A stretch of DNA of 64,000 nucleotides from Acidimicrobiaceae bacterium (GCA_009844405.1 VYBO01000130.1:12-64011); one strand, 5' to 3'; shown: positions 5,122 to 55,121, numbered from the stretch's first letter. The notes: a model not told the origin generated them from the letters alone. Program-made: numbers and translations.

Positions 5122-5200
5122 GGGCGCGCCTCAGCCGTGAGCATGAGACATTTTAGGTGTCGGGCACGGAGCCCGGGGCAGGAGGCCGACGGGTGGTTGG

Positions 5201-10848: not shown

Positions 10849-11450
10849 CCGGCCGGCTCATTGCGGTCGAGGGGGTGGACGCGTCGGGAAAGTCCACCCA
10901 GGCCCGGTTGCTGGCCGAGTCGCTGGGCGCGGTGTTCACCTTCCAGTTCGGCGCCACCGGTGTGGGGGCAGAGATCAGGCGGATGCTGCTCGATCCGGAC
11001 AACGATTCCCTAGACGACCGCACCGAGGCGCTGCTGATAATCGCGGACAAGGCCCAGCATGTGGCCGAGGTCGTCGGCCCGGCACTGCGAGATGGCCAGC
11101 ATGTAGTCACCGACCGCTTCACCGCGTCGACGCTCGCCTACCAGGGCTACGGGCGCGGTCTCGATCTTGCCGAGTTGCAGACGATGATGCACTTCGCCAC
11201 CGGAGGGATCGAACCCGACTTGAACCTGCTTCTGGACATCCCCCTCGAATTGGCGTCGCGGCGGCTGGGATCGTCACTCGACCGCTTCGAGGGAACCGGT
11301 GACGGCTTCCTCGATCGGGTCCGGGTCGGCTACCTGACTATGGCCGGGGCCGACCCGGCCCACTGGGCGGTGGTCGACGCCGACGGCTCGGTGGATGACG
11401 TGGCCGCCCGGGTGTTGGCCGCCGTGCAAGAACGTCTCGGCGGCATGTGA
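10845..11450 (+). CDS. tmk: dTMP (thymidylate) kinase
   Basis: LIAVEGVDASGKSTQARLL P-loop and a ..VVTDRFTASTLAYQG.. motif. GTG start overlaps the MFS stop. Confidence 0.9.
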   Translation: MTGRLIAVEGVDASGKSTQARLLAESLGAVFTFQFGATGVGAEIRRMLLDPDNDSLDDRTEALLIIADKAQHVAEVVGPALRDGQHVVTDRFTASTLAYQGYGRGLDLAELQTMMHFATGGIEPDLNLLLDIPLELASRRLGSSLDRFEGTGDGFLDRVRVGYLTMAGADPAHWAVVDADGSVDDVAARVLAAVQERLGGM

Positions 11451-13732: not shown

Positions 13733-13947
13733 CTAGCGGCAGCGGGCGAGGAAGTTGTCGAGCAGGTCGCGGCCCGCGTCGGTCAGCACCGACTCCGGGT
13801 GGAACTGCACTCCCTCGGTCGGGTGGCGCCGGTGCCGCAGACCCATCACCAGGCCCTCGTGGCAGGTGGCGGTGACTTCCAGCACGGGTGGCACAGAGGC
13901 GCGCTCGACGATCAGCGAGTGGTAGCAGGTGGCGGTGAAGGGGTTCG
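13733..13947 (-). pseudogene. C-terminal fragment of glutamine amidotransferase (anthranilate/aminodeoxychorismate synthase component II, TrpG/PabA-like)
   Basis: The last 71 aa of the frame read ..FTATCYHSLIVE..LEVTA..GLVMGLRHRRHPTEGVQFHPESVLTDAGRDLLDNFL. This is a class-I GATase C-terminus (His/Glu of the triad in HPES). The N-terminal ~120 aa are absent and the fragment abuts the helicase stop codon. Confidence 0.7.
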
Positions 13948-19200: not shown

Positions 19201-19281
19201 CCAACGAAACCGAGGCTTCAGGTCTGCGCCATCACTGCCGAGATCACTCTGCTCCGCTGACTCGACAGGAACTGCAGTGTC

Positions 19282-19692
19282 TCAGATGGAAGGCGGGTGT
19301 CGGTCATCGAACCCAGCGGCCACGATCCGATAGATCGAACTTGCGCAAGACGATGCACGAGCAGCATCGCCTTCGGTCGGCTCGTCCCACTCCCCCGGAT
19401 AGCGCGACTCGACTCCCCACTGGGTCAATTCAGCCAGACCGGCCCCGTCACTTCGTATCCCCCAGTGGTCCGCGCACAGACTGCAAAGAGCGTCCAAATC
19501 ATGGGTGAACGGGATCCGAGCACCGTCCAGCATCAAGGCGGCCTTCAGTGCCTTCTCCGCCGCTTGACAGAACAGGTAACAGGCGTGTCGTGGCGCCGCG
19601 GGTGACTGGAGCAGTCTTTGCGCGACCTGGAGGTCCTCACCCGCGAAATGGAGCCAGCGAAACGCCTCAGCCACCCGCTCATCGCCGCTCAT
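19282..19692 (-). CDS. HEPN domain protein (toxin-type partner of MNT)
   Basis: ..AEKALKAALMLDGARIPFTHDLDAL.. and ..ESRYPGEW.. are the HEPN signature. The start (ATG 19692) overlaps the MNT stop by 14 nt. The ORF track extends to 19722. Confidence 0.75.
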   Translation of the reverse strand: MSGDERVAEAFRWLHFAGEDLQVAQRLLQSPAAPRHACYLFCQAAEKALKAALMLDGARIPFTHDLDALCSLCADHWGIRSDGAGLAELTQWGVESRYPGEWDEPTEGDAARASSCASSIYRIVAAGFDDRHPPSI

Positions 19693-20032
19693 AGACAACT
19701 GTTCCCGTCCGGAGCGCTTCATGCAGCAAAGTTCCTGAAATGTCGCGACGGCGTTCGATCTCAGCGGGAGTGGCCACGACTATGTCCTTGCTCGCGGGCA
19801 AGTCCCGCAGTTCGTGGCGGATCGCAACCGCAACTCGGTGCTTGTGGACGGTCTCCTCGACCACGACGAGAAGGTCTATATCGCTGTCGCTGTCCGCTTC
19901 GCCCCGCGCCCTGGACCCGAACAGCACAACTCGCTGAGGCGCGAAACGACTCACAATTCGCCGAACTGCGGCATCTACGGTCGCATCAATCACAGGATTG
20001 GACTCGGCGGCCAGCGTACCCACAGCAACCAA
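19679..20032 (-). CDS. Minimal nucleotidyltransferase (MNT, antitoxin-type partner of HEPN)
   Basis: Pol-beta NTase motif VVLFGSRARGEADSDSDIDLLVVV in a 117-aa protein. Confidence 0.8.
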   Translation of the reverse strand: MVAVGTLAAESNPVIDATVDAAVRRIVSRFAPQRVVLFGSRARGEADSDSDIDLLVVVEETVHKHRVAVAIRHELRDLPASKDIVVATPAEIERRRDISGTLLHEALRTGTVVYERR

Positions 20033-20386
20033 CCCTACCGCCTCGACCCTGTGGCCAGCCCAGCGTTGCGAGCCCCGAACTCACCGAAGACCGCTCAGCC
20101 TGCTTGGTGGTAGGGATGCTCATCTCCGACAGTACTCAAGTCAAGTGACTGGCTTTCGCGGGGTTGCGCTCCTATGCGTTCCTGGTTCTTGAATGCCGGG
20201 TCGTGGCTGCCGTCGTCGGTCTGGTTCGGCGAGGTTCGCGAGGTGGCGTTCGCGGGCGGTTTGGTGTGAGCTTGGCCACGTGACACGATCATCTTTGCGG
20301 CCGATCTTGGCCACGCGGGCCTTGGTTCTGGTTGTGCTGGCCGGGTTGGCGGCTTCGGCTCTGGTTCACGCGCCGCTCGTCGCTGC

Positions 20387-39759: not shown

Positions 39760-39809
39760 CAAGACGGTGTTGATCACACCGGAAGTAGGCTCTGAACAGG
39801 GATCTTGGG

Positions 39810-39853
39810 AGCCCGAGACAGGAGTCGAACCTGCGACCTGCTGTTTACAAGAC
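39810..39853 (-). repeat. Partial duplicate of tRNA-Thr(TGT): anticodon arm to 3' end (att-like direct repeat, distal copy)
   Basis: The 44 nt AGCCCGAGACAGGAGTCGAACCTGCGACCTGCTGTTTACAAGAC are identical to 55048-55091 inside the intact tRNA gene. Confidence 0.85.
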
Positions 39854-39999
39854 GCAAGAAGCAGGTGTCGGCCAGTATCAGCCCGTACCAGAAAGTACGT
39901 CTGACGTCGGCTTTCGCGATCCGGCCGTGTCAGCGAGTGCCTGTGGATATCGCCCAGTTTCTAACTGTACGTTAGAAGATCCGTTAGAAGACTCGGCCC
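39850..39999 (+). repeat. ~150-bp island-arm repeat, left copy
   Basis: AGACGCAAGAAGCAGGTGTCGGCCAGTATCAGCCCGTACC...TTCTAACTGTACGTTAGAAGATCCGTTAGAAGA is roughly 90% identical by eye to 54834-54982. It contains three GTTAGAA motifs, one of them inverted. Confidence 0.85.
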
Positions 40000-40294: not shown

Positions 40295-41077
40295 TTGCAC
40301 GACGCGATGGCTGCGCAACCACTTGGCCCGTTTGGATCTTTGGGCGACGTGCGGCGTGCCGGCGAGGTGTTGCGCCAGGCACAGGCCAGCGAGGGCAACC
40401 TGCCCTCGATTGAGGAAGTCCGCGATGCCCGTGAGGTTGTCGAGGCGTATCGGTCTGCTCATGCTGCGCCCTTGCATGCCGCCTACATGGGGATGCGATC
40501 ATGCCTGACCACCGAGGGCTTCTATGTCGATCTCTTCAATCTCGACGTCTCGCGGCGGCTCAAGAGGCTGCCCACCATCGAGGACAAGCTCCGGCGGCTC
40601 CCCACGATGGACCTGTCGACCATGCAGGACATCGGAGGTTGCCGGGCCGTTCTCAACACCCAAGATCAGGTCCAACGGGTCGTAGAGCGATTCTGTGCCA
40701 ACAGCCTCAGACGAAACCGACGGCCCGACAGGATCAGAGACTACGTGGCCGAGCCTCAAGACTCCGGTTACCGGGCCATCCACATCTACACGAGGTACCA
40801 CGGCCGGCGGATCGAGGTGCAGCTCCGCACCCGAGAACAGGACAGCTGGGCCAAGATCGTGGAGGACTTGACCAGCAAGACCGGCATCGACTTCAAGAAC
40901 GGCGACGGTCCCGATGAGGTTCACGAAATGCTCCGGGCACTGTCGCAGCTCCTGTCTCAGCGAGAGCCGGGAGAGCCATACTCGAAGGAACTCATGGGCG
41001 TTCTCACCCGGCTGGCTCTGGTGGCAACGGCCGGCCTTGCTGTAGGGTCTCATCACCGAAGAACAAGGGAGGACTGA
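40295..41077 (+). CDS. RelA/SpoT-domain nucleotide pyrophosphokinase (small alarmone synthetase, toxSAS-like)
   Basis: Synthetase-fold motifs MQDIGGCRAVL, ..SGYRAIHIY.., ..IEVQLRTREQDSWAKIVE... No HD hydrolase, TGS or ACT domains. 260 aa. Confidence 0.75.
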   Translation: MHDAMAAQPLGPFGSLGDVRRAGEVLRQAQASEGNLPSIEEVRDAREVVEAYRSAHAAPLHAAYMGMRSCLTTEGFYVDLFNLDVSRRLKRLPTIEDKLRRLPTMDLSTMQDIGGCRAVLNTQDQVQRVVERFCANSLRRNRRPDRIRDYVAEPQDSGYRAIHIYTRYHGRRIEVQLRTREQDSWAKIVEDLTSKTGIDFKNGDGPDEVHEMLRALSQLLSQREPGEPYSKELMGVLTRLALVATAGLAVGSHHRRTRED

Positions 41078-41361
41078 TGGCTAAGCGCAAGACCATTGAC
41101 TTCCTCATCGTGTACGACCATGACGCAAGGAAGCAGATCAGCCTCGAGGAGTTCCGCAACACGGCTCAAGCGCTCAAGGCCTACAGTGAACGCGAAGAGC
41201 AATACCGCGACAACCACCGATTGGAGGTCGTCCTGCTGGGTGCCGACTCCATAGAAGCCATCAAGGTCACTCACTCCAACTACTTCGAGGACACAGCCGA
41301 CGCCCTCGACGACCTGCTCGCCAGCCTCGGGCCCGAACCGATCCCGGCTGTTGGGCCCTAG
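41077..41361 (+). CDS. Small acidic protein, candidate cognate antitoxin of the RelA/SpoT-domain protein
   Basis: 94-aa ORF whose ATG overlaps the upstream TGA (TGATG), with a GGGAGGA RBS inside the upstream gene. No recognisable motif. Confidence 0.5.
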   Translation: MAKRKTIDFLIVYDHDARKQISLEEFRNTAQALKAYSEREEQYRDNHRLEVVLLGADSIEAIKVTHSNYFEDTADALDDLLASLGPEPIPAVGP

Positions 41362-41446
41362 GACCTCTCCGCTGGCCCCACGCTGAGCGCGTCGCAAGAA
41401 GCCGGAGAGCTGGTCCGCCGATTCGCACGACGGTCTGAGTTTCTCC

Positions 41447-41482
41447 TTGTTCTGTGTTCCTGTACACAAGAACACAGAACAA
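41447..41482. terminator. Bidirectional hairpin between convergent genes
   Basis: Perfect 13-bp inverted repeat TTGTTCTGTGTTC-(10 nt)-GAACACAGAACAA, between the + strand pair (ends 41361) and the - strand giant gene (ends 41595). Confidence 0.5.
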
Positions 41483-41594
41483 CATCGATCGTCCGCGGCT
41501 GAGGTTCAGGATCGTCACCTCGGGAGCGCATGCCTTGCGCAGTGAAGGCCCTACGAGCTATCCCAGGCGAGGACTCTCGCCCCCGGTCGGCTGG

Positions 41595-44500
41595 CTAGTC
41601 CTCAGCAGACTGAGATTCGAGGATGACAGCGACACCGCCTGGGTCGATGTCCCACTCCAGCGCGAGGTAGCGGGCACCTACCATCGCGTCGAACTCAGCA
41701 ACGCCGCCGCCCTCCCGCAGCCCGGTTGCGATTTGCTTGGCGAAACAAGGCTCAGTGCTCGTCCCCTCAAGTTCCGACTGGACTCTGTCCGCGGTCATAG
41801 CAAGAAGGTCGAGTAGATCCCTGACGAACGGGTCGTCAGGGATGTCGTTCAATTGCTCATATGCCGTTGCGAACTCCGATGTGGCCGACTCAACGACAGC
41901 AAGGACAATCTCGTGGGACTGCTGTTCATCTGGCAGTTGGGAGATGCCCGACAGTGCTTGTAGGGCATGCTGGCACTGATCGAATAGGTTCGCGAGAGGG
42001 CTGGGATGTGCAGCGGGCAGCATTTCAAGACCTTCAGGATTGGGGAACGGCCACAGGTTGCCGACGAGCTTTGTAGCCAGGCTTGGAGCCGGTCGGCCAT
42101 CGCGCAGCGGAACGAAGACGAAGGTTTCCTCCACTGGTCGGTCCGCGCCGAGCGCCTCCTCAAGGCTGGCGACAGCGGCTGGCCAATCGAGTAGGGAAGC
42201 GACATCGACTGACACCAAGTACTCGGCGAAGCCTGCGTGTTCGCGATCGACGTGGCGGATCGTGGCTGCTAGACCGGTCTCTCGAAGGGTGGCTTGGACA
42301 GCAGGGCGCCTAGTCTGATTGCGGCGGCGCTCAAGCTGCCTACAAGTCTGGGCAGCGCGCTGCAGCGCACGGGCTGGCGTCCCCGATTGCGCGCTGCGTC
42401 TGATGCGAGCCACATCGGCATCGGCTTCTGCGAGTTCATTGATCACAGCGTGCAGGTCCAGCAGCGTTGAACGGAGCGAGTCGAGACAAGGTGGATGGTC
42501 CTCAACTCCCATGAGATGCCATGGCTGGCCGATTGCACCCTGCAGGTGCTTCTCAAGGACGGTGTCACTGATGTAGGCCGCCAGCGCTCGATATCCATCT
42601 GGGTTGGTAAGCCGCTGGAACACATTGCCGGTCAAGTCGGTGATGAGGGCGGACAGGTCGTCGGCCTTGTCGTTCGGCCTCTCGTCGGACATAGCAATGT
42701 CACCGAGTTGCGCGGGCCCTGATGCCGGGCGAAGTGCACGGCCGCCTTCGTGCAGTTCCGCGAGTTGCGTGTTCAGCCCTTGGAGATCGCGCTCCTCCCC
42801 GGCCACGAATCCGTTGCCGAGGCGCAGGGTGAGACTGGCGGCACGCTCAAGCAGGGGGAGCGCTTCGGAGAGTCGCGTGGTGTCGGCTGCACCGAGAAGC
42901 GACTGCGCCGCTTGAAGGCGGACTTGATTCCAGGCGCGAGCTGCCGACGTGTGGTCATACTGGCGCCTAAGGCGGCTGATTCCATGCGTGTGACCGCCAA
43001 TTGTCAGTGGCAAGCCTCCCGGCCAGAGTGCCTGGACATCGACGCTCTCGATGTGCGGGAGGCAGCGCAACAGCAAGCGTCCGAGCGCGATCGCTTCCTC
43101 GCCCGCGTCGGGCTGAGCCGAATCCGACGTGTGAAGGAAGCGGCAGTAGCCGACGGTCTCGCCGTCAACCGAGCGGGTGTCCAATTCCATTATCCACGGG
43201 TTTTCTGCGCGGATCCTTCTGATGACGGCGGACTCACGACCGAGCAACTCGACGAGGTGCGCTGCTAGCTGCGGTTCGCAGTTGCGCGCTGTCGCAACGC
43301 ACGTGGCCAACCCGTCCACCGAAGCGGCTCGAAGGCTCACTCCAAAGGAGGACCTGGAGACCAGGGCGTTGCGAAGAGCTACAGATAGTTCCGGTGGGCT
43401 TCCTTCCATTACCTCAAGCAGTCGGGTTGCTCGAACTAGGGAACTCTCAGATGCAACCAGGTCGGCCACCTCGGCGTGGCCTATCGCAGCTACCAGATCG
43501 TCCCTGGACCTCCGTTCGACAGCAGAGTCCATTGCCTCACGTGCAGCCCGAAGCTCCGCGGGAAAGAAGTCGGGGAATTCGAGTCCCGCAGCTGCGAACA
43601 GGACAAGGACTGGCTGGCTTGATGCCGGCACTCCGTGTTGCTCCGCGATCTGCTTCCACTCTCTCGCACGGTCGTAGAAGTCAGCGAGTCGAAGGCCTTG
43701 CCCGACCCCAACTAAGCGCTCCGGATCTACCGGACCGGCAGTCTCGGCTTCGATGACGACTTGGCGGGCGTCGGGTATGTCGGCGAGCATCGACGCTACG
43801 AATCGATGTAGCTGTGGTGTGGGAATCAGACGGACCACTCGTCTCACGCTCTCTGTGAGTTGCGGTGGGGGTAGCCGATGGATGGCATTGCACAGAGCGA
43901 TCGAACGGAGCCGGTGCAGACCCCCGATCTCTCCTTCCCGCTCAACAATGAGGTGCTCCGCGACAAGACGGCTCAGCGCCGCGCGGGTTTGGAGGCCGGT
44001 CAATTCGCACGCATGGGCAAGCGCGGTCGTTGAGATTCGTGCGGACCACCGATCCGCGACCGAGGTCAGGGCGAGAATGTCAAGCTCGTTGTGTCGTCCT
44101 TCGTCAATGCGTCGGCGGACCTGTTCGTCGATGACGTCGCCAAGCCGGTTCCCTCGGGTGAGCAGGTGTGTGAACTCAAGCGTCAGCCCGCGCGACGCTT
44201 CGAAGGCCTCCATCCAGTGGGCAGCACCGGTCGCTTGACGCCGAACCAGCCCGTTGAAGATCGTCTCTGCGGCTGCTTCGTCAAGACGCACATCGATGGA
44301 GGCGCACATCGAGAGGTCGCCAAGCACAAAGAGATCCTCAGCTCGCGCTGTCGCAACGAGAAGCAGGCCGGGCAGCGCTGCCGCTGCGGAGCGGAGTTCC
44401 GCCCAGCCCGTCAGGTCAGCGGTGCCAGCTGCATCAATCAGGAATCCGACGGGTCTATCGTGGGCCACTCCATAAGCCCGAGCGAGCCGGATGAGGTGAT

Positions 44501-45629
44501 GGACATCGCGAGCTGACAGGCGCTTGATGCGGAACCAGAGCACGCCAGGGAGCGCTAAAGGGATGGTCCACAGGACAGCGCTCTTGCCGACACCCGACGG
44601 CCCTGCGATTACTGCTGCTGAGCGATCATCCAGCCCGGATAGGACTTCAGCGACGAGCTCCGGGCGTGGGACCACAAGATTCGATGCGACATGAAACGGC
44701 TGCGTGGCCATGCCTTCGTAGTACCGGTCATCCCCTGGCTGCGACGCTGGGTACTCAAGGGTCTCGCACATCCCCTGCCGTATCGCGAACTCGAGAGACT
44801 CAAGGTCGAGATGAGCGACGACCTGCTCGATCGTGCTAACGGCCGCGGTTCGGTCGAGCCGCCGACGGGCCTCGTAGCTCGCCGTCGCGTTTGCGTCCGC
44901 GGCGTCTGCCACATCCGAGCACAGTTGCCGAGCAACGAGCCTCAGCGCCGAGGGTGGTAGGTCCCACTGACTGCGAATGTGAGTAACCGTCGCGGCCAAG
45001 ACTTCTGCTCTGCTGGCCCCGAGGACGACTGTCGTGGCCAGCAGTTCCGATAGGTCGCGCCGGCTCATGCCATGACTCGTCGCTCTTGTTGCCAGATTCG
45101 TCACGAGCGGGGACCCATCGTTCATGCGGTCCGCCAGTGAAGTGCCGAGATCATCTAGCCCGTTGAGGTCTTCCTCGCCCGTCACGCCGCGTTCGAGCAC
45201 GACGATTAGGGCCGCGCCCCGGTGCCCTCTAGAAGCGTGCCGCTCCCAGGCATCGAGAATGTGCCTGCTAGCCGTAGACGGCGGGAACTTGTCAAGATGC
45301 TCGACCCTCGACTTGACCTGGACGTGGCGCGGCTCGTCGCCTTCTAGCGACAAGTCTTCGAAGCCCTCAGGAACGAGCCATGTAGGTCCGATCCCGCATG
45401 CAAGTCGGGCAGCTAGCCAGGCACCCACCTCATCCTGAAAGTGGAAGCCGCGCCCCGAGCGGGCGCCAGATCTTGATTTCGACCACTGGCTGACCAGCAA
45501 CTCGCCATTGGAGTCCTCGTCCACTTCAACAGGCCGAGTCTCGCAGGGAGCGCTCTCGATCGGCTTTCGAGTCGGCGTCTTCCTTGGTCGGGAGCCCTTC
45601 CCGCGGCGCTTAGCCCGCTTCTTCGCCAT
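41595..45629 (-). CDS. 1344-aa protein: N-terminal Cap4-type (DUF4297-like) PD-(D/E)xK nuclease + P-loop NTPase + long helical C-terminal region (Avs/STAND-like architecture)
   Basis: N-terminus: ..GRGFHFQDEVGAWLAARL..LVPEGFEDLSLEG..RHVQVKSR.. (GxxFQ...E-x-ED...QxK). Walker A VIAGPSGVGKSAVLW at ~aa 340, Walker-B-like RPVGFLIDAAG, then ~900 aa of Leu/Ala-rich helical sequence. Confidence 0.7.
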   Translation of the reverse strand: MAKKRAKRRGKGSRPRKTPTRKPIESAPCETRPVEVDEDSNGELLVSQWSKSRSGARSGRGFHFQDEVGAWLAARLACGIGPTWLVPEGFEDLSLEGDEPRHVQVKSRVEHLDKFPPSTASRHILDAWERHASRGHRGAALIVVLERGVTGEEDLNGLDDLGTSLADRMNDGSPLVTNLATRATSHGMSRRDLSELLATTVVLGASRAEVLAATVTHIRSQWDLPPSALRLVARQLCSDVADAADANATASYEARRRLDRTAAVSTIEQVVAHLDLESLEFAIRQGMCETLEYPASQPGDDRYYEGMATQPFHVASNLVVPRPELVAEVLSGLDDRSAAVIAGPSGVGKSAVLWTIPLALPGVLWFRIKRLSARDVHHLIRLARAYGVAHDRPVGFLIDAAGTADLTGWAELRSAAAALPGLLLVATARAEDLFVLGDLSMCASIDVRLDEAAAETIFNGLVRRQATGAAHWMEAFEASRGLTLEFTHLLTRGNRLGDVIDEQVRRRIDEGRHNELDILALTSVADRWSARISTTALAHACELTGLQTRAALSRLVAEHLIVEREGEIGGLHRLRSIALCNAIHRLPPPQLTESVRRVVRLIPTPQLHRFVASMLADIPDARQVVIEAETAGPVDPERLVGVGQGLRLADFYDRAREWKQIAEQHGVPASSQPVLVLFAAAGLEFPDFFPAELRAAREAMDSAVERRSRDDLVAAIGHAEVADLVASESSLVRATRLLEVMEGSPPELSVALRNALVSRSSFGVSLRAASVDGLATCVATARNCEPQLAAHLVELLGRESAVIRRIRAENPWIMELDTRSVDGETVGYCRFLHTSDSAQPDAGEEAIALGRLLLRCLPHIESVDVQALWPGGLPLTIGGHTHGISRLRRQYDHTSAARAWNQVRLQAAQSLLGAADTTRLSEALPLLERAASLTLRLGNGFVAGEERDLQGLNTQLAELHEGGRALRPASGPAQLGDIAMSDERPNDKADDLSALITDLTGNVFQRLTNPDGYRALAAYISDTVLEKHLQGAIGQPWHLMGVEDHPPCLDSLRSTLLDLHAVINELAEADADVARIRRSAQSGTPARALQRAAQTCRQLERRRNQTRRPAVQATLRETGLAATIRHVDREHAGFAEYLVSVDVASLLDWPAAVASLEEALGADRPVEETFVFVPLRDGRPAPSLATKLVGNLWPFPNPEGLEMLPAAHPSPLANLFDQCQHALQALSGISQLPDEQQSHEIVLAVVESATSEFATAYEQLNDIPDDPFVRDLLDLLAMTADRVQSELEGTSTEPCFAKQIATGLREGGGVAEFDAMVGARYLALEWDIDPGGVAVILESQSAED

Positions 45630-45762
45630 ATCGCGATGGTTGCAGTGACCTATGACACTTGCCGGAATCGCCCCGATCGGGAAGCGCGCGGCCTCCAGAA
45701 GATCCCAAAGGATGGGTGCTCACCGATGGATGCTCTCGTCTCATTGGATCGCCTCACAGGAC

Positions 45763-48700
45763 TCAGGGCGCGGACAGGGAGCAGAGGTCCGACAAGAGGC
45801 TCCTAAGGTCCTCGACGGGGATGATCGTCGTGCCTACGTCGCTACCCAGATGGCGGAGCAGGTCGGCGGCGATGGATGGTGCGCTGGTCACGAGGATGTC
45901 CTCGATCTGCCAGTCGCCGGCGCGTCCCGCGAGTTGCATCTGACGGTGGAGCGTTGACCAGTGGTCTCGCACGAACTTGACACGCTCGTTGTGGCGGGCA
46001 ACGGCCGGGTTCTCTCCGGAAACAAGCTTGTCGAGATCCTGCTTGATTTCGCGGGCGCTCCGCGACGTAGCGAAGCTCTTGGCTTCGATGATCGAAAGAG
46101 TCTTGCGATGCTTGTTGATGACGAGCACATCGATGTCCCCTAGCTTGTCGCCGTTCTGTCGTTCTAGCGAAGTGTTTCCGAGCGACTTCACTTGCACGCT
46201 CACCTGGTTGTGCGGGTCCCTGCGGAAGATGTCGGCGACTTCGCTCTCGAACTCCCTGCTGATGCGGTTGCGCTGCTGGCTGATGTACCGCTTCATCGAG
46301 CGCGACTTGGCCGCTAGCCGGCCGGAAGACATCTGCTCGAACAGCGCTTCTGTGGCGGTCCAAGGCGCCTGGCTGCCCCAAGTGGCTACCAACTCATCGT
46401 CCCCGCATTCTCGAATCAAGACAGGACGACGTAGGAATGAGTTTTCTCTCGCGTAGCGCCACGGCGTGAAATCCGGATCGAACAGATCTGGGTCCTTATC
46501 GGCTGGCGCCGCCCTTAGCGACATCATGTTGATCATTCTTGTTGCCTGCTGTTGGTCGAGTTCGGTGGTCGTGGTGAGATCGTGCAGAAGATCGGAAACG
46601 AGCATTGTCCTCACTTGAACGTCGTTGCCCGCAGCGAGTTCGCTCAGGCGCTCCACCGCTTCAAGGAACCCGATGAAAGGCACGCCGAACTCGGCTTCGA
46701 ACACGGCCGATGCCTCTCTGAGATCGGCCGCGGGCGGAGGGTCTTGGCTTGCCATGAAGTTGGCCCACTCGGCTAGTAGGTCTTGGGCCGCAAGGGCGCG
46801 CGCATTCGTGTCGGTGCGGTCGCCCACGGCTTGGCAGTACGGATCGCTCAGGTCCATTCGTAGACAGCCGGGTTCCCGAAAGTACAGGTCCGTATCCGAT
46901 AGCTCTAGGCGGTAGGCGTCGCCAATGGAGCCCAATGCGATCATCTGCTGGGAGATCGCCAGGAGTTCGTCGTAGCGCGAGAACGACATCGGGCGGTGGC
47001 CGCCGCGGACGCAGCGCACGGCCGATTCGATCAGGTAGCGGCTCGCCAAAGCGCTCTGTTCGATCTCATGATGTTTCTCGATCGCGCTACGCATGTCGCC
47101 GCCGTTGTCAGCGTCGGTGAATGGGTTCGGGGCCATGACGCGCAACATCGTCCTGTCGCGTTGCATCCGCTCCTGCTCCGACGCGAGCAACTCAAAGGTC
47201 GTATAGGGGTCGAGTTCGCGAAGTTTCTCGCGCAACCTGCCGTCGAGGGTGCGCACGATCTCCACGATGATCTCTACGCGACGCTCCACAGGGACGGGGC
47301 CGAACTGTAGACCGAGGCCGGACGCAATCGCGTCGATCTCGTTTACCACGCCATCAAGTTCGAGGTGGTATTGCAGCCGGCACCCGGGCAGATGTGCGCC
47401 ACCGTGGACGCCGGGTACATATCCGATGCCGACATGCATGAACCGCGGGCCTTCGTGGATGCTGACGTCGTTGAGGTCGGCGTCCATAACGGCGGATGGC
47501 CGTCCTGCCAGCGACGCCAGTGACCTTGCCACTTCCACGATCAGTTCTTGTTCTGCAGCATCGGCTACCTGCGATAGGCGCGCTGCGGCATTGGGCAGCA
47601 GTCGCACGGTGATTCGGTGCTCATCACGATCGACTGCGATCTCGAACCACGGCGCGTCGTCGGCGTGGTCGACGTCCGCGAATGAGAGTACGGACCCGTC
47701 GGGATCGACGATCTCGATGACGACGCACGAGGCGCTCACGGCAATCGTGTCCAGATTCGTGTCGACACGGTCTCGTATCCGCCACAGGTGGAGCGAGAGG
47801 GCGTCTGCTACTCCCGCACAGAACCGCTGCGATTGAGTGCCAGCGCCATGGGCTCCGACCCAGCACGGCAGAGCAAGCTCAACCAGCCTCAGATGTCTCA
47901 GATCCTCGCGCTGAGGTACGTACACACGCACGCTCTCGCTCACAGCTTCGCGGCTCACAGGCACCGCTCTCGAGCCATCGGGTAGAGGGACGGCATGTGC
48001 ATCTGATCGGCGTCGCTCTCTGACAGCTAGGGGTGCTCCAAACCCGGGGGGCAGCAGGATGCCGCGTGCTTCTGGGCCGCTAAGTCGACGCGGCCTTCTG
48101 TCGGACTGGAGGTACAGCGCGTAGGCGTCTGCTGCATTGTTGACCGTTCCGTAGCCGGGCAGACGGATTTCGGCGAGGGCCCTTACGAACCGCCAGAGCC
48201 CCAGGCTGTCGTCCCGCTCGTGGTGGGCAATTGTGCGCATCTCATCGATGGTCAGCAGGAGAACCGACCGGCCTCCACCTTCAAGCTCAGTGAAGTCCGC
48301 ATGCATCGGGCGGCCGATCGGCACCATGAGCACTAGGTGAAGAACCTCACCGGCCGGGTTGGCGGCGCGCGCCGCGTCGCGGACATGTTGCATGCGCTTG
48401 TTGATGCATTGCATCTGCGAGGTGGAGTCGGTCGCCGCATGTGGCCTCGCGGTCTCGTATCCGTTGAGATCGTCAGCGAATACGACAACATGCGCGATCT
48501 TGTCAATATCGAACGCGAATAACGCATCTTGGAGATTGCTGGATGGTTGGAGTGCCAGCGAGGCGTCCAGTGGAACCCACCTCATCTGCTGACATAGACG
48601 TTCTGTCTCGGCCAGAACGGCTCGCTCGAAGGCTGCCATCAGATGGTGGTGCACGCCACTCGCGGCGGCCCTCGCTGCGACGCGATGCACTACAGAGAGG

Positions 48701-49467
48701 GCGAGCTGGTTTGGCGATGGCACGATCAGCCCGTTCGAAGAAGAATTCAGGGACAGCGGATACAGGAGGGCCCGGTCGTCGGTCAAGCGGGCGCGATCTC
48801 GCTTCCAAGCGATCCGCTTCGTGGGCCAGCACAGATCGGAGAAGCCCTCAAGCCCGCCGAATCGGGTCTCCAAGTCCGGCCCGTCGATGCAGACAGCCGC
48901 CTTCAGGCGCCGGAGCTCTTCCACTGGCGGAATGTGAACTCCTCTGTCCTTCTCGAACTTGGGTTCCTGCCAGCGTTCCAAGCCGCCGCCGCGCGCGGCC
49001 CTGTCGGAGATCCAAAGAAGGCGGGCTGCGTCGCGTCGCATCAGTTCTTGCACACCTGCAGCCTCGGCCGGAATTTTGTCGAGTGCTTGGAGCACGAACT
49101 GGCATACGGTCGCCGCGTTGGCGACCGCGCCTGGGACTGTGAGGTACTCGGCGTCGTCGAATACGACTGGTGCTGTGAACGGACTCTCGAAGGGATCTTC
49201 GTGGGCGAGCACATGGTCACTAGCGATCGGAGGACCCGTCAACAGAGCTTCAATGTCGGCGACTGCCGCTGTCCGCTGCGGAAGAGCGGGGCGCACGGCT
49301 CGCGTCGCCTCGACCAAGCGTGCGAAGCGGAGCCACTTCGTAGCGTTGTCGGGTAGGAGCTGAAGTGCCCCCGCACTCAGGAGCAGTGAGTCGGTCACAC
49401 TCCGAAGTTGCGGGCCCAAGCGGGCCAACTCGCGAGGAGTGCCCCTGCGAGATCCCGGGAGCCTCAT
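45763..49467 (-). CDS. 1234-aa protein of unknown function with a C-terminal PD-(D/E)xK-like nuclease motif
   Basis: Uninterrupted ORF whose ATG overlaps the stop of the upstream E2-like gene (ATGA at 49464-49467). C-terminal motif ..LGDIDVLVINKHRKTLSIIEAKSF.. (D-x13-E-x-K; nt 46081-46140). No Walker A or other motif recognised in the first ~1100 aa. Confidence 0.7.
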   Translation of the reverse strand: MRLPGSRRGTPRELARLGPQLRSVTDSLLLSAGALQLLPDNATKWLRFARLVEATRAVRPALPQRTAAVADIEALLTGPPIASDHVLAHEDPFESPFTAPVVFDDAEYLTVPGAVANAATVCQFVLQALDKIPAEAAGVQELMRRDAARLLWISDRAARGGGLERWQEPKFEKDRGVHIPPVEELRRLKAAVCIDGPDLETRFGGLEGFSDLCWPTKRIAWKRDRARLTDDRALLYPLSLNSSSNGLIVPSPNQLALSVVHRVAARAAASGVHHHLMAAFERAVLAETERLCQQMRWVPLDASLALQPSSNLQDALFAFDIDKIAHVVVFADDLNGYETARPHAATDSTSQMQCINKRMQHVRDAARAANPAGEVLHLVLMVPIGRPMHADFTELEGGGRSVLLLTIDEMRTIAHHERDDSLGLWRFVRALAEIRLPGYGTVNNAADAYALYLQSDRRPRRLSGPEARGILLPPGFGAPLAVRERRRSDAHAVPLPDGSRAVPVSREAVSESVRVYVPQREDLRHLRLVELALPCWVGAHGAGTQSQRFCAGVADALSLHLWRIRDRVDTNLDTIAVSASCVVIEIVDPDGSVLSFADVDHADDAPWFEIAVDRDEHRITVRLLPNAAARLSQVADAAEQELIVEVARSLASLAGRPSAVMDADLNDVSIHEGPRFMHVGIGYVPGVHGGAHLPGCRLQYHLELDGVVNEIDAIASGLGLQFGPVPVERRVEIIVEIVRTLDGRLREKLRELDPYTTFELLASEQERMQRDRTMLRVMAPNPFTDADNGGDMRSAIEKHHEIEQSALASRYLIESAVRCVRGGHRPMSFSRYDELLAISQQMIALGSIGDAYRLELSDTDLYFREPGCLRMDLSDPYCQAVGDRTDTNARALAAQDLLAEWANFMASQDPPPAADLREASAVFEAEFGVPFIGFLEAVERLSELAAGNDVQVRTMLVSDLLHDLTTTTELDQQQATRMINMMSLRAAPADKDPDLFDPDFTPWRYARENSFLRRPVLIRECGDDELVATWGSQAPWTATEALFEQMSSGRLAAKSRSMKRYISQQRNRISREFESEVADIFRRDPHNQVSVQVKSLGNTSLERQNGDKLGDIDVLVINKHRKTLSIIEAKSFATSRSAREIKQDLDKLVSGENPAVARHNERVKFVRDHWSTLHRQMQLAGRAGDWQIEDILVTSAPSIAADLLRHLGSDVGTTIIPVEDLRSLLSDLCSLSAP

Positions 49468-49985
49468 CGGTCCTCCTGGTCCGCCCCGGAGCCAGCAAGC
49501 ACTCTCTGGTTCCGACCGCTGGCGTGAGCCTTGCTCCTACGGCGGGAGAGATGCCGATGGTGTGTTGTCGATCCGACAATTGGGCCGGTGTGGTTGCCGC
49601 CGCTTCCGCACCATTCCCCGGTAGCACGCCAGAACTCGTAGTGGAGGAGCCACTCACAGGCCCACGGGAGGATGGTCACAGCGATTGGATCGCCGGGGGA
49701 CCACTGGCCGGGTTCATGCAGGCAGAGGCTGCCGTCCGGGTAGATGTGGGGCAGGTTGCCGTCGGTGTCGACGACGAGCTTCGGGCGACGGACGAAGACG
49801 CGCGGGTGATACGGCGGCGCGTAGCGGAGGGCTACAAGGTATTGCCGGCTGACCTCGCTGGGTTGGAGTTCACCGGTCCACTGCAGCACTCCAGCCTTCA
49901 GCGTCGCCTGCCCGTGCGGGTAGTGATCGTCGAGCAGTCGCGCCTCCCGTACGAGTGCGAGGGTGCGTCTATCGGTCTGGGCCAT
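49464..49985 (-). CDS. Stand-alone prokaryotic E2-like (UBC-fold) protein, CBASS type II(short)-style
   Basis: ..LPHIYPDGSLCLHEPGQW.. resembles the E2 HPN..G.ICL catalytic-Cys loop. 173 aa. The start overlaps the CD-NTase stop by 17 nt. Confidence 0.6.
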   Translation of the reverse strand: MAQTDRRTLALVREARLLDDHYPHGQATLKAGVLQWTGELQPSEVSRQYLVALRYAPPYHPRVFVRRPKLVVDTDGNLPHIYPDGSLCLHEPGQWSPGDPIAVTILPWACEWLLHYEFWRATGEWCGSGGNHTGPIVGSTTHHRHLSRRRSKAHASGRNQRVLAGSGADQEDR

Positions 49986-51105
49986 GAAAGTCGTGGGGCT
50001 GAATCTTGGTGCCGCTCCGATCGGTCACTCTTCCCTGCTGGACGACGCTGAGGCCGCCGGCAGCTGCAAGGGACGAGAGGCCCACCCCGACTCGCTTGGC
50101 TCCGGCCTGCACCGGGGCAGCACCGAGTGCAGTGCCAAGCGACCTGACGGCCTCGTCAACGCCGTTGCTGGTGGCCCAGCGGTCGGTATCGGCTACCAGC
50201 GCCTCGACCCACCGATCGAAGTGTCTCTTGCGGTCCGGGTTCGTGTTCCACTTGTCCGCGAAGTTCTCCTCCTCGTGGGCCGGGTTGGGGACCCACCAGG
50301 TGCCGTTGCGCCATTCGACGTGAGACGGGAGGCTGCGAGCCACCTTCCGGAACGCCTCGTATAGGTCGCTTTCCCCGCCGTAGGCATGCGTTGCCAAGGT
50401 CGTGATAAGGATGGAGGCTGGTTTGTCCTGGGGGTTGCTCCGGAAGAACCTGTCGCGGTGCAGCTTCAGCAACTGAACCACCCGTTGCAGCGCGGTTCTC
50501 ACCAGCCACTGAGGAACGTCTTCGACGTCTCGGCTGAGCATCACAGCCAGTTGCGCCCTGGCGACATCAACGGCCTCCCCCATGGAACTCCAGAACCAGT
50601 CGGCGTATCCGATCGGGTTGCTGTGCTGCCACAGGAACAGGTCGCGATCTGACAGCAGCACGGCGGTGTCGTCGCCGTCGGGATCGGGGATGACGGGCAG
50701 CACGTCCATGTGGAAGCGGTCACCCGCATAGATGAGTTCCCAGCAGCGGCCTCGCTCCTTCAGTGTCGGGTTTCCGTTGCTGGCTCCGCGTACGGTGATG
50801 TAATCCGTCAGTAGCTGCCCAGCCTGGGCGCGGAGTTCCTTCTGGGTGATCGACTCCTTGGTCAGGAGTCGGAGGTGGACCAGGTCGATGTCGAAGTCCC
50901 CGCCGGCGGTCGGTCGCAGCACGGTTCCCAGCCGGAACGAGCCCTGTGGGTACACTTCGCGTTCGTCGACGCCTTGGGCGACGAGCCATTGGCCGAGATC
51001 CGTGTATCGATGCTCTGCGAGCGCAAACTGCTGGGGTGAGATGTCGAGTTCCCCGGCCGTTGCGTCGAGCACTCGCGAGGTCACCTGGAGATTGCTATTG
51101 GGCAT
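49969..51105 (-). CDS. CD-NTase (cGAS/DncV-like nucleotidyltransferase, SMODS-type)
   Basis: Start MPNSNL.. (ATG 51105). Pol-beta NTase core QGSFRLGTVLRPTAGGDFDIDLV (GS-x13-DxD) plus a third acidic HMDVLP. ..SILITTLA.. helix. The N-terminal LDISPQQFALAEHRYTDLGQWL is typical of SMODS. Confidence 0.75.
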   Translation of the reverse strand: MPNSNLQVTSRVLDATAGELDISPQQFALAEHRYTDLGQWLVAQGVDEREVYPQGSFRLGTVLRPTAGGDFDIDLVHLRLLTKESITQKELRAQAGQLLTDYITVRGASNGNPTLKERGRCWELIYAGDRFHMDVLPVIPDPDGDDTAVLLSDRDLFLWQHSNPIGYADWFWSSMGEAVDVARAQLAVMLSRDVEDVPQWLVRTALQRVVQLLKLHRDRFFRSNPQDKPASILITTLATHAYGGESDLYEAFRKVARSLPSHVEWRNGTWWVPNPAHEEENFADKWNTNPDRKRHFDRWVEALVADTDRWATSNGVDEAVRSLGTALGAAPVQAGAKRVGVGLSSLAAAGGLSVVQQGRVTDRSGTKIQPHDFHGPDR

Positions 51106-52168
51106 GGGTGAGCTCCTTTCCATGGAAGGGGGTGTACGGAGAGGGGGAGTGCTGGAAGAAGTCGGCCAGCGCAGGCGAGCATGTGCGGCTCTCAGCGAGG
51201 GCACGTCCGATCAGGTCCGGGGCGGTCACCGAGTCGAGCTTGTGAAGGCCCACGGGGGTCGGCGCGTCCACCCGCACCACGTTGGACCGCCCGAGAATGA
51301 GCTGGGCATGGTTGGTGGCTGCCAGGCTCTGCCCTCGCAGCATCACCTTGAGGCCGTCCGAGCGCCAAGCGAACAATCCCCCGTTGTCAAGAGTGGTCCG
51401 GCGTTCGCGGACTTCGTTCGTGGTGCCCACATTGAGGACGCGGATGCGGCCGCGCTCACCGCCGAGACGGTCGAAGCACTCCGCCACCCCCACCAGCGTC
51501 GGGTTGTTGGCCCACACACCGCCGTCAATCAGACGGTGCGCCTCCACCCGGTGAGTGGGGAGGAACGCCGGCGCTGCCGCGGTGGCCAAGGCCACGTCCA
51601 CGGCCGCCACTCGCCAGTCGCGTCGCAGGTCCCGATGGTGGGGGGTGCGGAACAGATGGACGTGATCCGCGGCTAGGTCGTAGCTGGGGATGGCGAGTCG
51701 GACCCTCGAAGCGCCGAGAAGCCGATCTCTGAAGCGGTCTTGCAGCACTGCTCGCAGTCCAGCGGCGTTGTATCGAGGCCACCGGAGTCGTCGCAATAAC
51801 CCGTGACGTGCTCGCCCCGCCCGTGGGAAGATGCGGTCGCCGTGTTCGAGATAGATCGACAAAACCTCAGTCGGCGGCACGCCCAGCCCAAGCGCCAGAG
51901 CGATGATGCCACCCGTCGAGGTCCCGACTATGAGATCGAAGTGGTCGGCGATCGACGTGCGGAAGTCCTCCTCCCAGGCAGCCAAGGTTGCCGCAGTGAA
52001 GATCCCGCGCAGCCCGCCTCCGTCGAGCGCGAGCACTTGGAGGAGCGGAGCGCTCCGATCCGGCGACCCAGCGGGCGTGGAATCGGACTCGACACCGATC
52101 ACGTAGCCGCTGGCAGCCTGAGGCTGGTCGTCGGCGTTCTCAGGCTTGGCTATCCGGATCTCAGTCAT
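51095..52168 (-). CDS. capV: Patatin-like phospholipase (CapV-like CBASS effector)
   Basis: Oxyanion DGGGLRG, nucleophile elbow GTSTGG and catalytic Asp in IDGGVWANNP. The stop overlaps the CD-NTase start by 11 nt. Confidence 0.8.
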   Translation of the reverse strand: MTEIRIAKPENADDQPQAASGYVIGVESDSTPAGSPDRSAPLLQVLALDGGGLRGIFTAATLAAWEEDFRTSIADHFDLIVGTSTGGIIALALGLGVPPTEVLSIYLEHGDRIFPRAGRARHGLLRRLRWPRYNAAGLRAVLQDRFRDRLLGASRVRLAIPSYDLAADHVHLFRTPHHRDLRRDWRVAAVDVALATAAAPAFLPTHRVEAHRLIDGGVWANNPTLVGVAECFDRLGGERGRIRVLNVGTTNEVRERRTTLDNGGLFAWRSDGLKVMLRGQSLAATNHAQLILGRSNVVRVDAPTPVGLHKLDSVTAPDLIGRALAESRTCSPALADFFQHSPSPYTPFHGKELTHAQ

Positions 52169-52232
52169 GCCGCGCTCCTCGGCTCGGCTCTAGGGTCCAC
52201 CACAAGCACATAACGTCAGTGTAATATCACTT

Positions 52233-52247
52233 CAACATGTTGTCAAC
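52233..52247. promoter_or_regulatory. Overlapping palindromes at the start of the XRE-HIRAN gene, plus a TAATAT -10-like hexamer (52222-52227)
   Basis: CAACATGTTG (52233-52242) and GTTGTCAAC (52239-47) straddle the ATG at 52237. TAATAT lies 9 nt upstream of the ATG with no SD sequence, which is a leaderless-type arrangement. The site sits in the 68-bp divergent intergenic region shared with the patatin gene. Confidence 0.4.
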
Positions 52248-53217
52248 CCGAGGCCTCATCTCCGTGACTGATCCATCCCCACCACCGGTGCTGACCTTGT
52301 CGGAGCTGAGACGGCGGCTCGGACGATCACAAGCCGAGGTCGCTACCACGATCGGCACGACCCAATCAGGCGTCTCGCGCATCGAGCACCAGGCCGACAT
52401 GCACGTGTCAACACTCAACGAGTACGCCTTCGCCCTAGGTGGGCGCCTGCGCTTGATTGTGGAACACGGCGACGATCACACCGAGATCGGGATCCCGGCG
52501 CTACGTCAGGAGCGACGCGAGCAGCGTCGAGAGTTCCGTGTGATCTGGCAGGACCAACCAACCCGGAGCCTGGTGCAGGTCGGGTGGCTCGTGTACACCG
52601 GCGACGAGTTCACGTTCTCATACGTCGACGAAGCCAAGTCCCACGAGCGGTTCCAGCCATTCCCCGCCTTCCCGCGCCTGGATGAGACCTACAAGGCAAG
52701 CGAACTTTTTCCGTACTTCGCCCTACGACTCACCAGCGCGGCCGATCCGCACTACGACGCTGTGTTGGACGCACTGGGACTCACCCGTGAAGACGCGACA
52801 CCCGTGGAACTGCTTGCACGGTCACCCGACTCGCCCCATGACACCATCCAGGTAGTGCCCGAACCCACGGAAATGGCCGATGGCACGCTCGTTCGCCTGT
52901 TTCTCGTGTCCGGTACCCGCCACGCAGACGAACGGGATCCCGACACCGTGAGCCGACTCATCGAGGACCTCGCTACGGACTCACTCCTCGACCTCGTGGC
53001 CGAGCCCAACAACCGGCACAACCCTCAGGCGCTTCATATCGCGGCAAATGGCAAACGACTCGGCTGGGTACCCGACTACTTGCTCTCGGAGATTCACGGC
53101 TACATCGACACAGACCGTCCAGTGTCAATCGCTGTCGCTCAAGCGAACGGTCCGGACGCCCCACCGCACATGCGCCTCCTATGCCGACTGACCGTAGCCC
53201 CCGGGACACCCGATTGA
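52237..53217 (+). CDS. XRE-family HTH protein with a C-terminal HIRAN domain
   Basis: N-terminal HTH: LTLSELRRRLGRSQAEVATTIGTTQSGVSRIEH. C-terminal HIRAN-like: ..LLDLVAEPNNRHNPQALHIAANGKRLGWVPDYLLSEI.. (EPxNxxDxxA..G..lGyvP pattern). Confidence 0.7.
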   Translation: MLSTRGLISVTDPSPPPVLTLSELRRRLGRSQAEVATTIGTTQSGVSRIEHQADMHVSTLNEYAFALGGRLRLIVEHGDDHTEIGIPALRQERREQRREFRVIWQDQPTRSLVQVGWLVYTGDEFTFSYVDEAKSHERFQPFPAFPRLDETYKASELFPYFALRLTSAADPHYDAVLDALGLTREDATPVELLARSPDSPHDTIQVVPEPTEMADGTLVRLFLVSGTRHADERDPDTVSRLIEDLATDSLLDLVAEPNNRHNPQALHIAANGKRLGWVPDYLLSEIHGYIDTDRPVSIAVAQANGPDAPPHMRLLCRLTVAPGTPD

Positions 53218-53284
53218 GCGTCAGCAACTCGCCGGATGCGGTGGCGTGTGAGGTTCTGCTGGCTGCAGAGTCCTTCAAGGCGGT

Positions 53285-53830
53285 CTAGGTCTTCGAGCGG
53301 GACGAGTCCCTCGCGGCTTTGCGGCGCAGCAGTCGCAGGACTCGTGTGATCCGGTCGTTGACCTGGCACTGGCCGTGAAGTCGGGCGATCTTGTCGCAGG
53401 CGTACTCAACCACGCCGATCGCGGCCACAGTGAGGGCCTCAGCGCTTTCGGCGGTGGCGATCTTCTCGACCTCGGGCATCATCCGCCACCACCGGTGCTC
53501 GTTGCCGAAGGCGCGGCGGCTGGCCCGCCACATGGTCACGTCGTCGAGGGTCACCTGGTCACCGAAGCGCGCTATCACCGTGGTCTGGTCCTCGTCGGGG
53601 AGGTGGGCCACGACGGTGGCGATGTCGCGGGAGTACAGGGCCCGCGCGTCGGTCTGCATCGCCGCTCCGAGTGCCCGCAGCGCTTCTTCGATGACGGCTG
53701 CGGCGCCCTGCGACGGGGCGCAGTGGCGCCAGGGGTCGTTGTATTCTTGGCTGCGAGGGCTGATCTCGATTAGGCGCCGGTGTGCTTGCTCGAGGTGGTA
53801 GTAGGCGGCCTCGATGTCGGTGTCGGGCAG
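53285..53830 (-). CDS. HEPN-like protein (partner of the upstream MNT); start unresolved
   Basis: Helical protein with ..AAYYHLEQAHRRLIEI.. and an Rx5H motif (RAFGNEH). The only upstream ATG (53947) would overlap the MNT gene by 178 nt. No ATG or GTG lies near the MNT stop, so this is either a frameshift or a non-canonical start. Confidence 0.4.
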   Translation of the reverse strand: MPDTDIEAAYYHLEQAHRRLIEISPRSQEYNDPWRHCAPSQGAAAVIEEALRALGAAMQTDARALYSRDIATVVAHLPDEDQTTVIARFGDQVTLDDVTMWRASRRAFGNEHRWWRMMPEVEKIATAESAEALTVAAIGVVEYACDKIARLHGQCQVNDRITRVLRLLRRKAARDSSRSKT

Positions 53831-54833: not shown

Positions 54834-54982
54834 AGACGCAAGAAGCAGGTGTCGGCCAGTATCAGCCCGTACCGGAAAGTGGGTTTGACGTGGGCTTTCG
54901 CGATTCGGCCGTGTCAGCGAGTGCCTGTGGATATCGCCCAGCTTCTAACCGTACGTTAGAAGATCCGTTAGAAGATCGGCCC
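54834..54982 (+). repeat. ~150-bp island-arm repeat, right copy
   Basis: Matches 39850-39999 with scattered substitutions and one 1-nt indel. It lies 62 nt from the tRNA-Thr(TGT) 3' end. Confidence 0.85.

Positions 54983-55044: not shown

Positions 55045-55121
<77 letters not shown>

Follow-up and report, generated by a model that had tools for sequence, protein, structure and literature searches.

We analysed a 64,000-nt stretch of DNA from an Acidimicrobiaceae bacterium (GCA_009844405.1 VYBO01000130.1:12-64011), referred to below as the window, with positions counted from its first letter, and concentrated on a long gene that lies directly behind a cyclic-oligonucleotide-based antiphage signalling system (CBASS). 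The gene occupies 45763..49467 on the minus strand and encodes, from an ATG start, a protein of 1234 aa. The initial annotation, made from the sequence alone, had placed this ATG over the stop codon of the CBASS E2 gene, and the open reading frame (ORF) listing and translation bear this out. The two genes share the tetranucleotide ATGA at 49464..49467 (-), in which the ATG covers 49467-49465 and the E2 stop codon TGA covers 49466-49464. The minus-strand junction reads ...ACCAGGAGGACCG ATG A..., and a strong Shine-Dalgarno sequence, AGGAGG (49477-49472), stands 4 nt 5' of the start codon.

Three genes precede the 1234-aa gene on the same strand. The E2-like gene (49464..49985 (-), 173 aa) matches the PADLOC E2 model at 8.7e-41, and Pfam PF26395 (E2-CBASS) is found on its homologues. 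The CD-NTase gene (49969..51105 (-)) encodes 378 aa from a likely ATG at 51105 and matches the PADLOC cyclase model at 7.2e-105 as well as Pfam DncV-like/SMODS; its mechanical ORF reaches a GTG at 51204, and the gene calls in four related loci (L007, L015, L017 and L018) are of 378 aa. The third gene (51095..52168 (-)) encodes a patatin-like phospholipase, the CBASS effector (Pfam Patatin, 9.1e-25; PADLOC phospholipase effector, 7e-100). Judged by these domain matches, patatin, CD-NTase and E2 are a complete, ordinary type II-short CBASS with an effector of its own. With the CD-NTase start at 51105, all four genes overlap their neighbours, by 11, 17 and 4 nt from patatin to the 1234-aa gene.

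The initial annotation had left the 1234-aa protein unassigned and had allowed that it might prove to belong to a known family, and the latter is what we found: the family is Upx. The PADLOC Upx model matches the protein at 1.2e-19 and the NCBIfam model NF042954 (Upx_antiphage) at 2.4e-22, with residues 731-1178 aligned to profile positions 749-1202 of 1240. A homologue search returned 29 proteins of 55-100% identity, nearly all of 1220-1240 aa and all from metagenomes or metagenome-assembled genomes; in this word-indexed search the same 29 proteins were recovered with a profile as with the single sequence. Pfam PF28173 ("Upx-like") gave no match in our local Pfam scan of the 1234-aa protein, and it is precomputed on 24 of the 29 homologues, among them the window protein's own entry. 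A scan of JGI metagenomes with degenerate patterns found no relatives.

Profile comparisons extended the match over the whole length of the protein. A profile of 18 close homologues matched the SeUpx chain of the cryo-EM structure 9wuf (9wuf_A) at 1.2e-25 in two collinear stretches (23-173 vs 47-191, and 561-1171 vs 593-1225), and a profile of 42 wider relatives, the window protein included, matched it at 5.7e-99 in a single stretch (11-1202 vs 34-1233 of 1272). When 1.84 billion cluster representatives were searched with a profile, 1981 relatives were obtained at E <= 1e-3, 683 of them at <= 1e-30, nearly all measuring 1150-1290 aa and matching in one full-length stretch. For all seven relatives that we sampled, Upx_antiphage was the only significant full-length NCBIfam match, with full-length coverage of the model in two; one of the seven additionally carried short N-terminal matches to SEC-C-type motif models.

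Structure prediction, which the initial annotation had suggested as a check, led to the same family by way of a low-confidence model. The AlphaFold2 (AF2) model was built on residues 25-1224 and reached a pLDDT of 56.8 and a pTM of 0.36, and only the E-value and the coverage of its Foldseek search were used. The sole significant match in the Protein Data Bank (PDB) was 9wuf, "Cryo-EM structure of Upx" (9.3e-23, 1235 columns, 15% identity). Pfam, PADLOC and NCBIfam found no other domain on the protein, an NTPase included, in agreement with the initial statement that it has no Walker, HD, TIR, SIR2 or helicase motif; none of the three resources supported a reading of the protein through any of these families or through SAVED. 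By its collinearity with SeUpx, the protein would comprise an N-terminal and middle sensor or scaffold part of approximately aa 1-685 and a C-terminal domain of approximately aa 686-1234.

The C-terminal PD-(D/E)xK signature noted at the outset was upheld. The motif, GDIDVLVINKHRKTLSIIEAKSF, is encoded at 46072..46140 (-) and contains D1113, E1128 and K1130, which align with the catalytic residues D1161, E1176 and K1178 of SeUpx in a residue-by-residue hidden Markov model (HMM) alignment to 9wuf_A. Across 42 family members of 20-66% identity, G1110, D1111, D1113 and K1130 never vary, and at least 90% of the members keep E1128. The suggestion that this core is of the NERD, Shedu or Cap4 type found no backing in Pfam or PADLOC, in which Cap4/DUF4297, NERD and DUF4263/Shedu gave no match at E <= 0.1.

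Upx was reportedly described by Gao et al. in 2020 as a single-gene defence system. SeUpx was solved as a monomer with an N-terminal domain (residues 1-515; NTD), a middle domain (MD, 516-714) and a C-terminal domain (CTD, 715-1272), and it is a Mg-dependent 3'-5' single-stranded DNA (ssDNA) exonuclease with D1161, E1176 and K1178 as its catalytic residues (Zhou et al. 2026, PMC13099982). The same study put forward, for the NTD, a second and simplified nuclease site made up of D122, D127, R129, E147 and D173, and gp16, a phage protein, as the activator of Upx (PMC13099982). In the work of Evans et al. 2026 (PMC13601566), SeUpx, HpUpx and PbUpx, with a mutual identity of ~16%, could each be set off by a diverse range of phage large terminases through their ATPase domain, the E1176A substitution eliminated both defence and toxicity, and gp16 did not trigger toxicity in the screen. 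All three proteins act alone in E. coli (PMC13601566; PMC13099982). Next to some Upx genes lies a further Upx or an Avs1 variant of the split-TPR kind, and CBASS is not mentioned by these authors (PMC13601566). An operon arrangement of CBASS and Upx is mentioned neither by Zhou et al. 2026 nor by Evans et al. 2026, and the abstracts examined of papers naming both Upx and CBASS give no sign of one. The idea that the 1234-aa protein is a phage sensor, also raised in the initial annotation, is compatible with its homology, because Upx proteins respond to phage large terminase (PMC13601566).

We collected the genomic context of 19 distinct loci (11 in clade A, defined below, and 8 outside it), thereby carrying out the survey of CD-NTase neighbourhoods that had been recommended for the protein. 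In a neighbour-joining tree, the close homologues fall into two clades. Members of clade A are 64-100% identical to the window protein, and each of their 11 loci has, immediately upstream, a CBASS that is whole or reduced to a remnant; none of the eight loci outside clade A has CBASS. The latter comprise clade B at 55-59% identity (L010/L011, L012, L016 and L019), L004 at 60%, and L003, L005 and L006 at 35-40%; the L003 homologue itself matches the PADLOC Upx model at 5e-33. Since the linkage to CBASS occurs in one clade only, it points to a single capture event and not to recurrent linkage. Between the CBASS-linked and the CBASS-free clades, the largest indel measures 6 aa and nine substitutions are fixed; the move behind CBASS brought the protein no sensor module. 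Outside clade A, the neighbours are unrelated defence or housekeeping genes, among them a GTPase-centred system, MazE, TmtA, type IIG restriction-modification and FtsK. In L012, a GASH/DO-GTPase/GAP1 conflict system (14164-20041) accompanies the CBASS-free Upx-family gene, and in L003 such a gene is accompanied by TmtA and a type IIG restriction-modification enzyme (3141-6269 and 13754-16888).

Within clade A, both halves of the arrangement are found broken. Seven loci keep patatin, CD-NTase, E2 and Upx intact (the window, L001, L007/L008, L015, L017, L018 and L020). In L002, an ISL3 transposase (10666-12170) interrupts Upx and CBASS is intact. Three loci show the opposite: a composite Transposase_mut transposon splits the CD-NTase gene in L013 (50-8911), an insertion sequence (IS) of the rve type truncates E2 in L014 (8469-9717) so that E2 residues 89-172 remain, and a deletion in L009 (9337-9909) leaves a 190-aa patatin/E2 fusion remnant. 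Beside each of these destroyed CBASS loci, the Upx ORF is full-length, at 1229-1264 aa. The genes that flank the cassette vary from locus to locus, and the window, L002, L007, L009 and L015 share a divergent helix-turn-helix (HTH) gene next to it; variable flanks around a kept cassette indicate that it moves as a unit.

The CBASS role that the initial annotation had proposed for the protein was not supported by these comparisons. Neither Pfam nor PADLOC gave a match to SAVED, CARF, STING or another cyclic-nucleotide sensor, or to a PADLOC CBASS effector or accessory model. A second effector gated by cyclic nucleotides through a cryptic SAVED-like sensor therefore found no counterpart in Pfam or PADLOC, and the only structural match, from the low-confidence model, was Upx. 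Against the broader claim of an extra CBASS component stand the same lack of a sensor or effector match, the lack of a clade-specific module and the restriction of the linkage to one clade. By all of these comparisons, the 1234-aa protein is not a CBASS component, and two known, probably autonomous defences are stacked at this locus. The fusion of CBASS and Upx is a minor architectural variant found in one lineage of Acidimicrobiia (Ca. Aldehydirespiratoraceae-like).

The junction between E2 and the Upx-family gene is conserved. The (A/G)TGA overlap could be read from the sequence at four loci whose E2 is intact (the window, L001, L002 and L007/L008), and it is also present in L013 and in L014, which keeps the 3' end of E2 only. 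The N-terminus MRLLGSR... recurs with it in L001, L002, L007/L008, L013 and L014. The gene calls of L017, L018 and L020 likewise give a 4-nt overlap of E2 and Upx. That the overlap and the start codon are kept across loci excludes a chance overlap. Overlaps of 4 nt are frequent among co-directional genes of this high-GC genome, two examples in the same window being 10845-10848 and 11447-11450.

A scan for sigma-70 consensus sequences identified one site on the operon strand, TTGACA-17-TACACT at 52218..52246 (-), directly 5' of patatin. It is not significant alone, because 1.7 sites would be expected by chance and the consensus is ill-suited to Actinomycetota. The same scan, weak for Actinomycetota, found no promoter-like site within E2, and a terminator scan of the minus strand from 41000 to 53500, also ill-suited to Actinomycetota, returned no terminator-like site. 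Because the genes overlap, no terminator-like site was seen and the sole, weak, sigma-70-like site lies 5' of patatin, co-transcription of patatin, CD-NTase, E2 and Upx is likely on the evidence of the sequence. The ATGA overlap supports co-transcription and a possible translational coupling of the Upx-family gene to E2, yet the gene has its own Shine-Dalgarno sequence, and such an overlap does not imply functional dependence. Of the initial claim that the gene is coupled to the CBASS genes, the operon-like, overlapping arrangement was confirmed, and a functional dependence is not demonstrated by the overlap.

Downstream of the Upx-family gene, and starting 133 bp beyond its stop codon, lies a gene for a 1344-aa Avs-like protein (41595..45629 (-)). 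Its AF2 model is confident (pLDDT 84.8, pTM 0.70), and the best Foldseek match is Avs3 bound to the PhiV-1 terminase (8dgc, 1.1e-11), with a TM-score of 0.20; Avs5, Avs4, plant NLRs, CED-4 and the Cap4 and LmuA nucleases are among the further matches. The protein has a Cap4/LmuA-like nuclease at its N-terminus, followed by a STAND P-loop NTPase (GPSGVGKS) and, towards the C-terminus, a helical region. The N-terminus shows weak sequence similarity to nucleases of the LmuA/AbpA type, and no significant Avs, Pfam, NCBIfam or PADLOC match of the 1344-aa protein was found at the sequence level. More than 311 homologues exist, all unnamed. On the strength of the model, this protein is probably an unclassified Avs-like nuclease-STAND defence protein that forms a separate system.

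On the other side of the cassette, a divergent HTH gene (52237..53217 (+), 326 aa) carries an N-terminal Pfam HTH_3 domain (2.5e-05) and a C-terminal part that matches PDC-M03B, a PADLOC candidate for phage defence (1.7e-60). Its homologues adjoin patatin in L002, L007, L009 and L015, and because it accompanies CBASS-Upx in several loci it may regulate the cassette. Separately, we observed that the C-terminus of E2 (49464-49580 (-), residues ~135-173) is ~28 residues longer than the PADLOC E2 models, and that this tail is basic, of low complexity and reaches the Upx start codon. The joining of the two genes may have lengthened the E2 ORF across what was once an intergenic region.

The CBASS, Upx-family, HTH and Avs-like genes are all contained in an island of ~15.2 kb that lies between 46-nt direct repeats. 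A repeat search placed the left att-like repeat at 39808..39853, as a perfect 46-nt copy of the 3' half of a tRNA-Thr (tgt) gene that ARAGORN located at 55045..55121 (-); the 3' half of this gene, 55046-55091, is the right att-like repeat. The GC content is 0.60-0.66 inside the island and 0.72-0.76 outside, and Pfam recognised no integrase in it. Just inside the island ends we noted a second direct repeat of 142 nt with 94% identity (39850-39991 and 54834-54975), which does not fit a simple attL/attR pair and could have been left by an earlier or a tandem island. At the left end lies a RelA/SpoT-domain gene of the small alarmone synthetase type (40295..41077 (+); a match to PDC-S33, a PADLOC candidate for single-gene defence, 5.7e-53), the end of which is overlapped by a 140-aa ORF on the opposite strand (41053-41475). 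Outside the island, a gene at 13948-19200 (-) encodes a 1750-aa protein with DEAD/Helicase_C and UvrD-like helicase modules.

We consider it probable that the 1234-aa protein belongs to the Upx family, as a divergent member of full length, and that it is autonomous of CBASS and forms a co-expressed but mechanistically independent layer of defence. The history of the locus would then have included one event in which a complete type II-short CBASS captured an Upx-family gene immediately 3' of its E2. Upx would be transcribed with CBASS, most likely from the promoter region 5' of patatin, and could be translationally coupled through the ATGA overlap. The resulting five-gene cassette of HTH, patatin, CD-NTase, E2 and Upx would be mobile as a unit and would at present reside in the 15-kb tRNA-Thr island. 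By analogy with SeUpx, HpUpx and PbUpx, the first ~1000 residues could act as a sensor and scaffold that binds a phage protein. Evans et al. 2026 identify this protein as the large-terminase ATPase domain, and Zhou et al. 2026 as gp16. Its binding would free the nuclease of D1113, E1128 and K1130, for which the published in vitro activity of SeUpx, Mg-dependent 3'-5' degradation of ssDNA, serves as the model. The expected outcome would be loss of phage DNA together with cell toxicity or abortive infection, and CBASS and Upx would be expressed together as defence layers that work independently.

Several observations weigh against this reading or qualify it. The NCBIfam Upx_antiphage score is 78 bits, far below the equivalog cut-off of 1900, which makes the protein a distant relative and not an orthologue or equivalog of Salmonella Upx. 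A single-sequence phmmer search of the PDB gave no match, 9wuf included, and only profiles led from the sequence to SeUpx; such a miss is consistent with the family, because its tested members share only ~16% identity. Given the poor AF2 model, no conclusion on global geometry can be drawn from the Foldseek TM-score of 0.19. The "DxR" site of the SeUpx NTD is not kept, as D127 is replaced by E107, R129 by L109 and D122 by L102 in the HMM alignment; this part of the alignment is weak (i-Evalue 0.0017), the site itself comes from one paper on one homologue, and the adjoining EDP motif is conserved, as is PWRxxR. Published work disagrees on whether gp16 or terminase triggers Upx, and the tested members all lie outside Actinomycetota. 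Context is known for 19 loci in a wider family of ~2000 members, and L009, L013 and L014 could be merely islands amid decay. Finally, the overlap with E2 is kept in all clade-A members with an intact E2 end, and a kept overlap and unit-wise movement of the cassette would also be expected if CBASS and Upx interacted.

Two alternatives would tie the protein to CBASS more closely. One makes it a true accessory, either a second effector that the CD-NTase product activates through a cryptic sensor, or a protein that controls the CD-NTase, as a phage sensor acting upstream or as a target of E2 conjugation. The 4-nt start/stop overlap throughout clade A, the recurrence of the HTH-patatin-CD-NTase-E2-Upx cassette in differing surroundings, as expected of a moving unit, and the presence of CBASS or its remnant in all 11 clade-A loci would suit such a role. 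However, no nucleotide-sensor match was found in Pfam or PADLOC, the low-confidence model matches Upx only, and along its entire length the protein aligns collinearly with one that defends alone. Moreover, the CBASS-linked and CBASS-free clades differ by no indel beyond 6 aa and by nine fixed differences, the tree reduces the linkage to a single evolutionary event, an intact Upx lies beside a broken CBASS three times, and this CBASS is already complete with its patatin effector; we regard an accessory role as very unlikely. The other alternative retains the identification as Upx and makes the cassette more than a stacking of defences: terminase sensing might feed CBASS, E2 might conjugate the CD-NTase to Upx, or both systems might stand under joint control of the PDC-M03B-type HTH protein, so that one could back up the other under inhibition by a phage. 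Such cross-talk is conceivable, given the conserved junction and the joint movement of the genes of the cassette, but all structural and phylogenetic tests speak against it and we give it a slender chance at best. If true, a CBASS would for the first time have a front end that senses a protein, or an Upx would for the first time be under second-messenger control.

In the opposite direction, Upx and CBASS might be linked by physical adjacency only, with Upx transcribed from a promoter of its own inside E2 and translated from its own Shine-Dalgarno sequence, the ATGA being a by-product of compact packing in a high-GC genome. The strong AGGAGG 4 nt 5' of the ATG agrees with this, as do sister-clade genes that share the N-terminus and have a Shine-Dalgarno-like sequence of their own without an E2 upstream. 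So do the Upx ORFs that stay intact after an IS or a deletion has removed the CBASS promoter region (L013, L014 and L009), and 4-nt overlaps are common in the window. The scan for a promoter inside E2 and for a terminator on the operon strand, weak as it is for Actinomycetota, nevertheless found neither, and four mutually overlapping genes (11, 17 and 4 nt) are typical of one transcription unit; on balance we hold simple adjacency to be unlikely. It is also imaginable that the partner of Upx is the downstream 1344-aa Avs-like STAND nuclease, the two genes forming a terminase-sensing module. Upx has a published association with a split-TPR Avs1 variant (Evans et al., PMC13601566), the confident model of the neighbour best matches the terminase-bound Avs3 (1.1e-11), and the same neighbour lies 3' of Upx in L001 and L017. 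However, the pairing occurs in only 3 of the 11 clade-A loci, with a different downstream gene in all others that could be read, a gap of 133 bp separates the genes, and there is no sequence-level match to Avs1. More than 311 Avs-like homologues face 29 of this Upx subfamily, so that most Avs-like members occur without it, and a two-gene module appears highly improbable to us. Co-expression of autonomous Upx and CBASS is the reading that we retain.

For the locus itself, this reading removes a false lead, as the giant protein is recognisable as an Upx-family nuclease and the CBASS is an ordinary type II-short system. The Upx family is extended to uncultured Acidimicrobiia by a member ~15% identical to the Salmonella protein, which could serve as a test of how general terminase sensing is. 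The locus also provides a natural case of two abortive-infection systems in one operon that moves as a cassette, and natural knock-outs of either half are present in related genomes. The position of Upx beside an Avs3-like STAND nuclease echoes the published Upx-Avs1 association, and two putative terminase sensors thereby share one 15-kb tRNA-Thr island with CBASS.

Compared with known systems, the 1234-aa protein resembles Upx most closely (SeUpx, PDB 9wuf; NF042954; PADLOC PDLC02221; PF28173). It is the same single polypeptide of ~1230 aa without an NTPase, collinear with SeUpx over its full length and equipped with the same C-terminal D...ExK; its gene lies in a defence island, and its relatives stand alone. 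It differs from SeUpx in being only ~15% identical by the Foldseek alignment and in not keeping the NTD DxR residues, and its clade differs from published Upx in being joined to a CBASS operon by the 4-nt overlap. Cap4, NERD and Shedu share the general PD-(D/E)xK restriction-endonuclease-like core with it; the Cap4-like nuclease similarity in the window belongs instead to the neighbouring 1344-aa protein. That neighbour has, like Avs1 and Avs3, a nuclease, a STAND NTPase and a long helical C-terminus, but its 1344 aa fall well short of the ~2000 aa of SeAvs3, it has no Avs sequence match and a low TM-score (0.20), and it is not a constant partner of Upx clade A (3 of 11 loci). The three upstream genes have the architecture of a type II (short, E2-only) CBASS with a patatin (CapV-like) effector, from which the locus departs by an additional 1234-aa Upx-family gene on the same strand that overlaps the E2 stop codon. 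The Upx family and the type II-short CBASS are known, and the 1234-aa protein is a new, very divergent member of the former.

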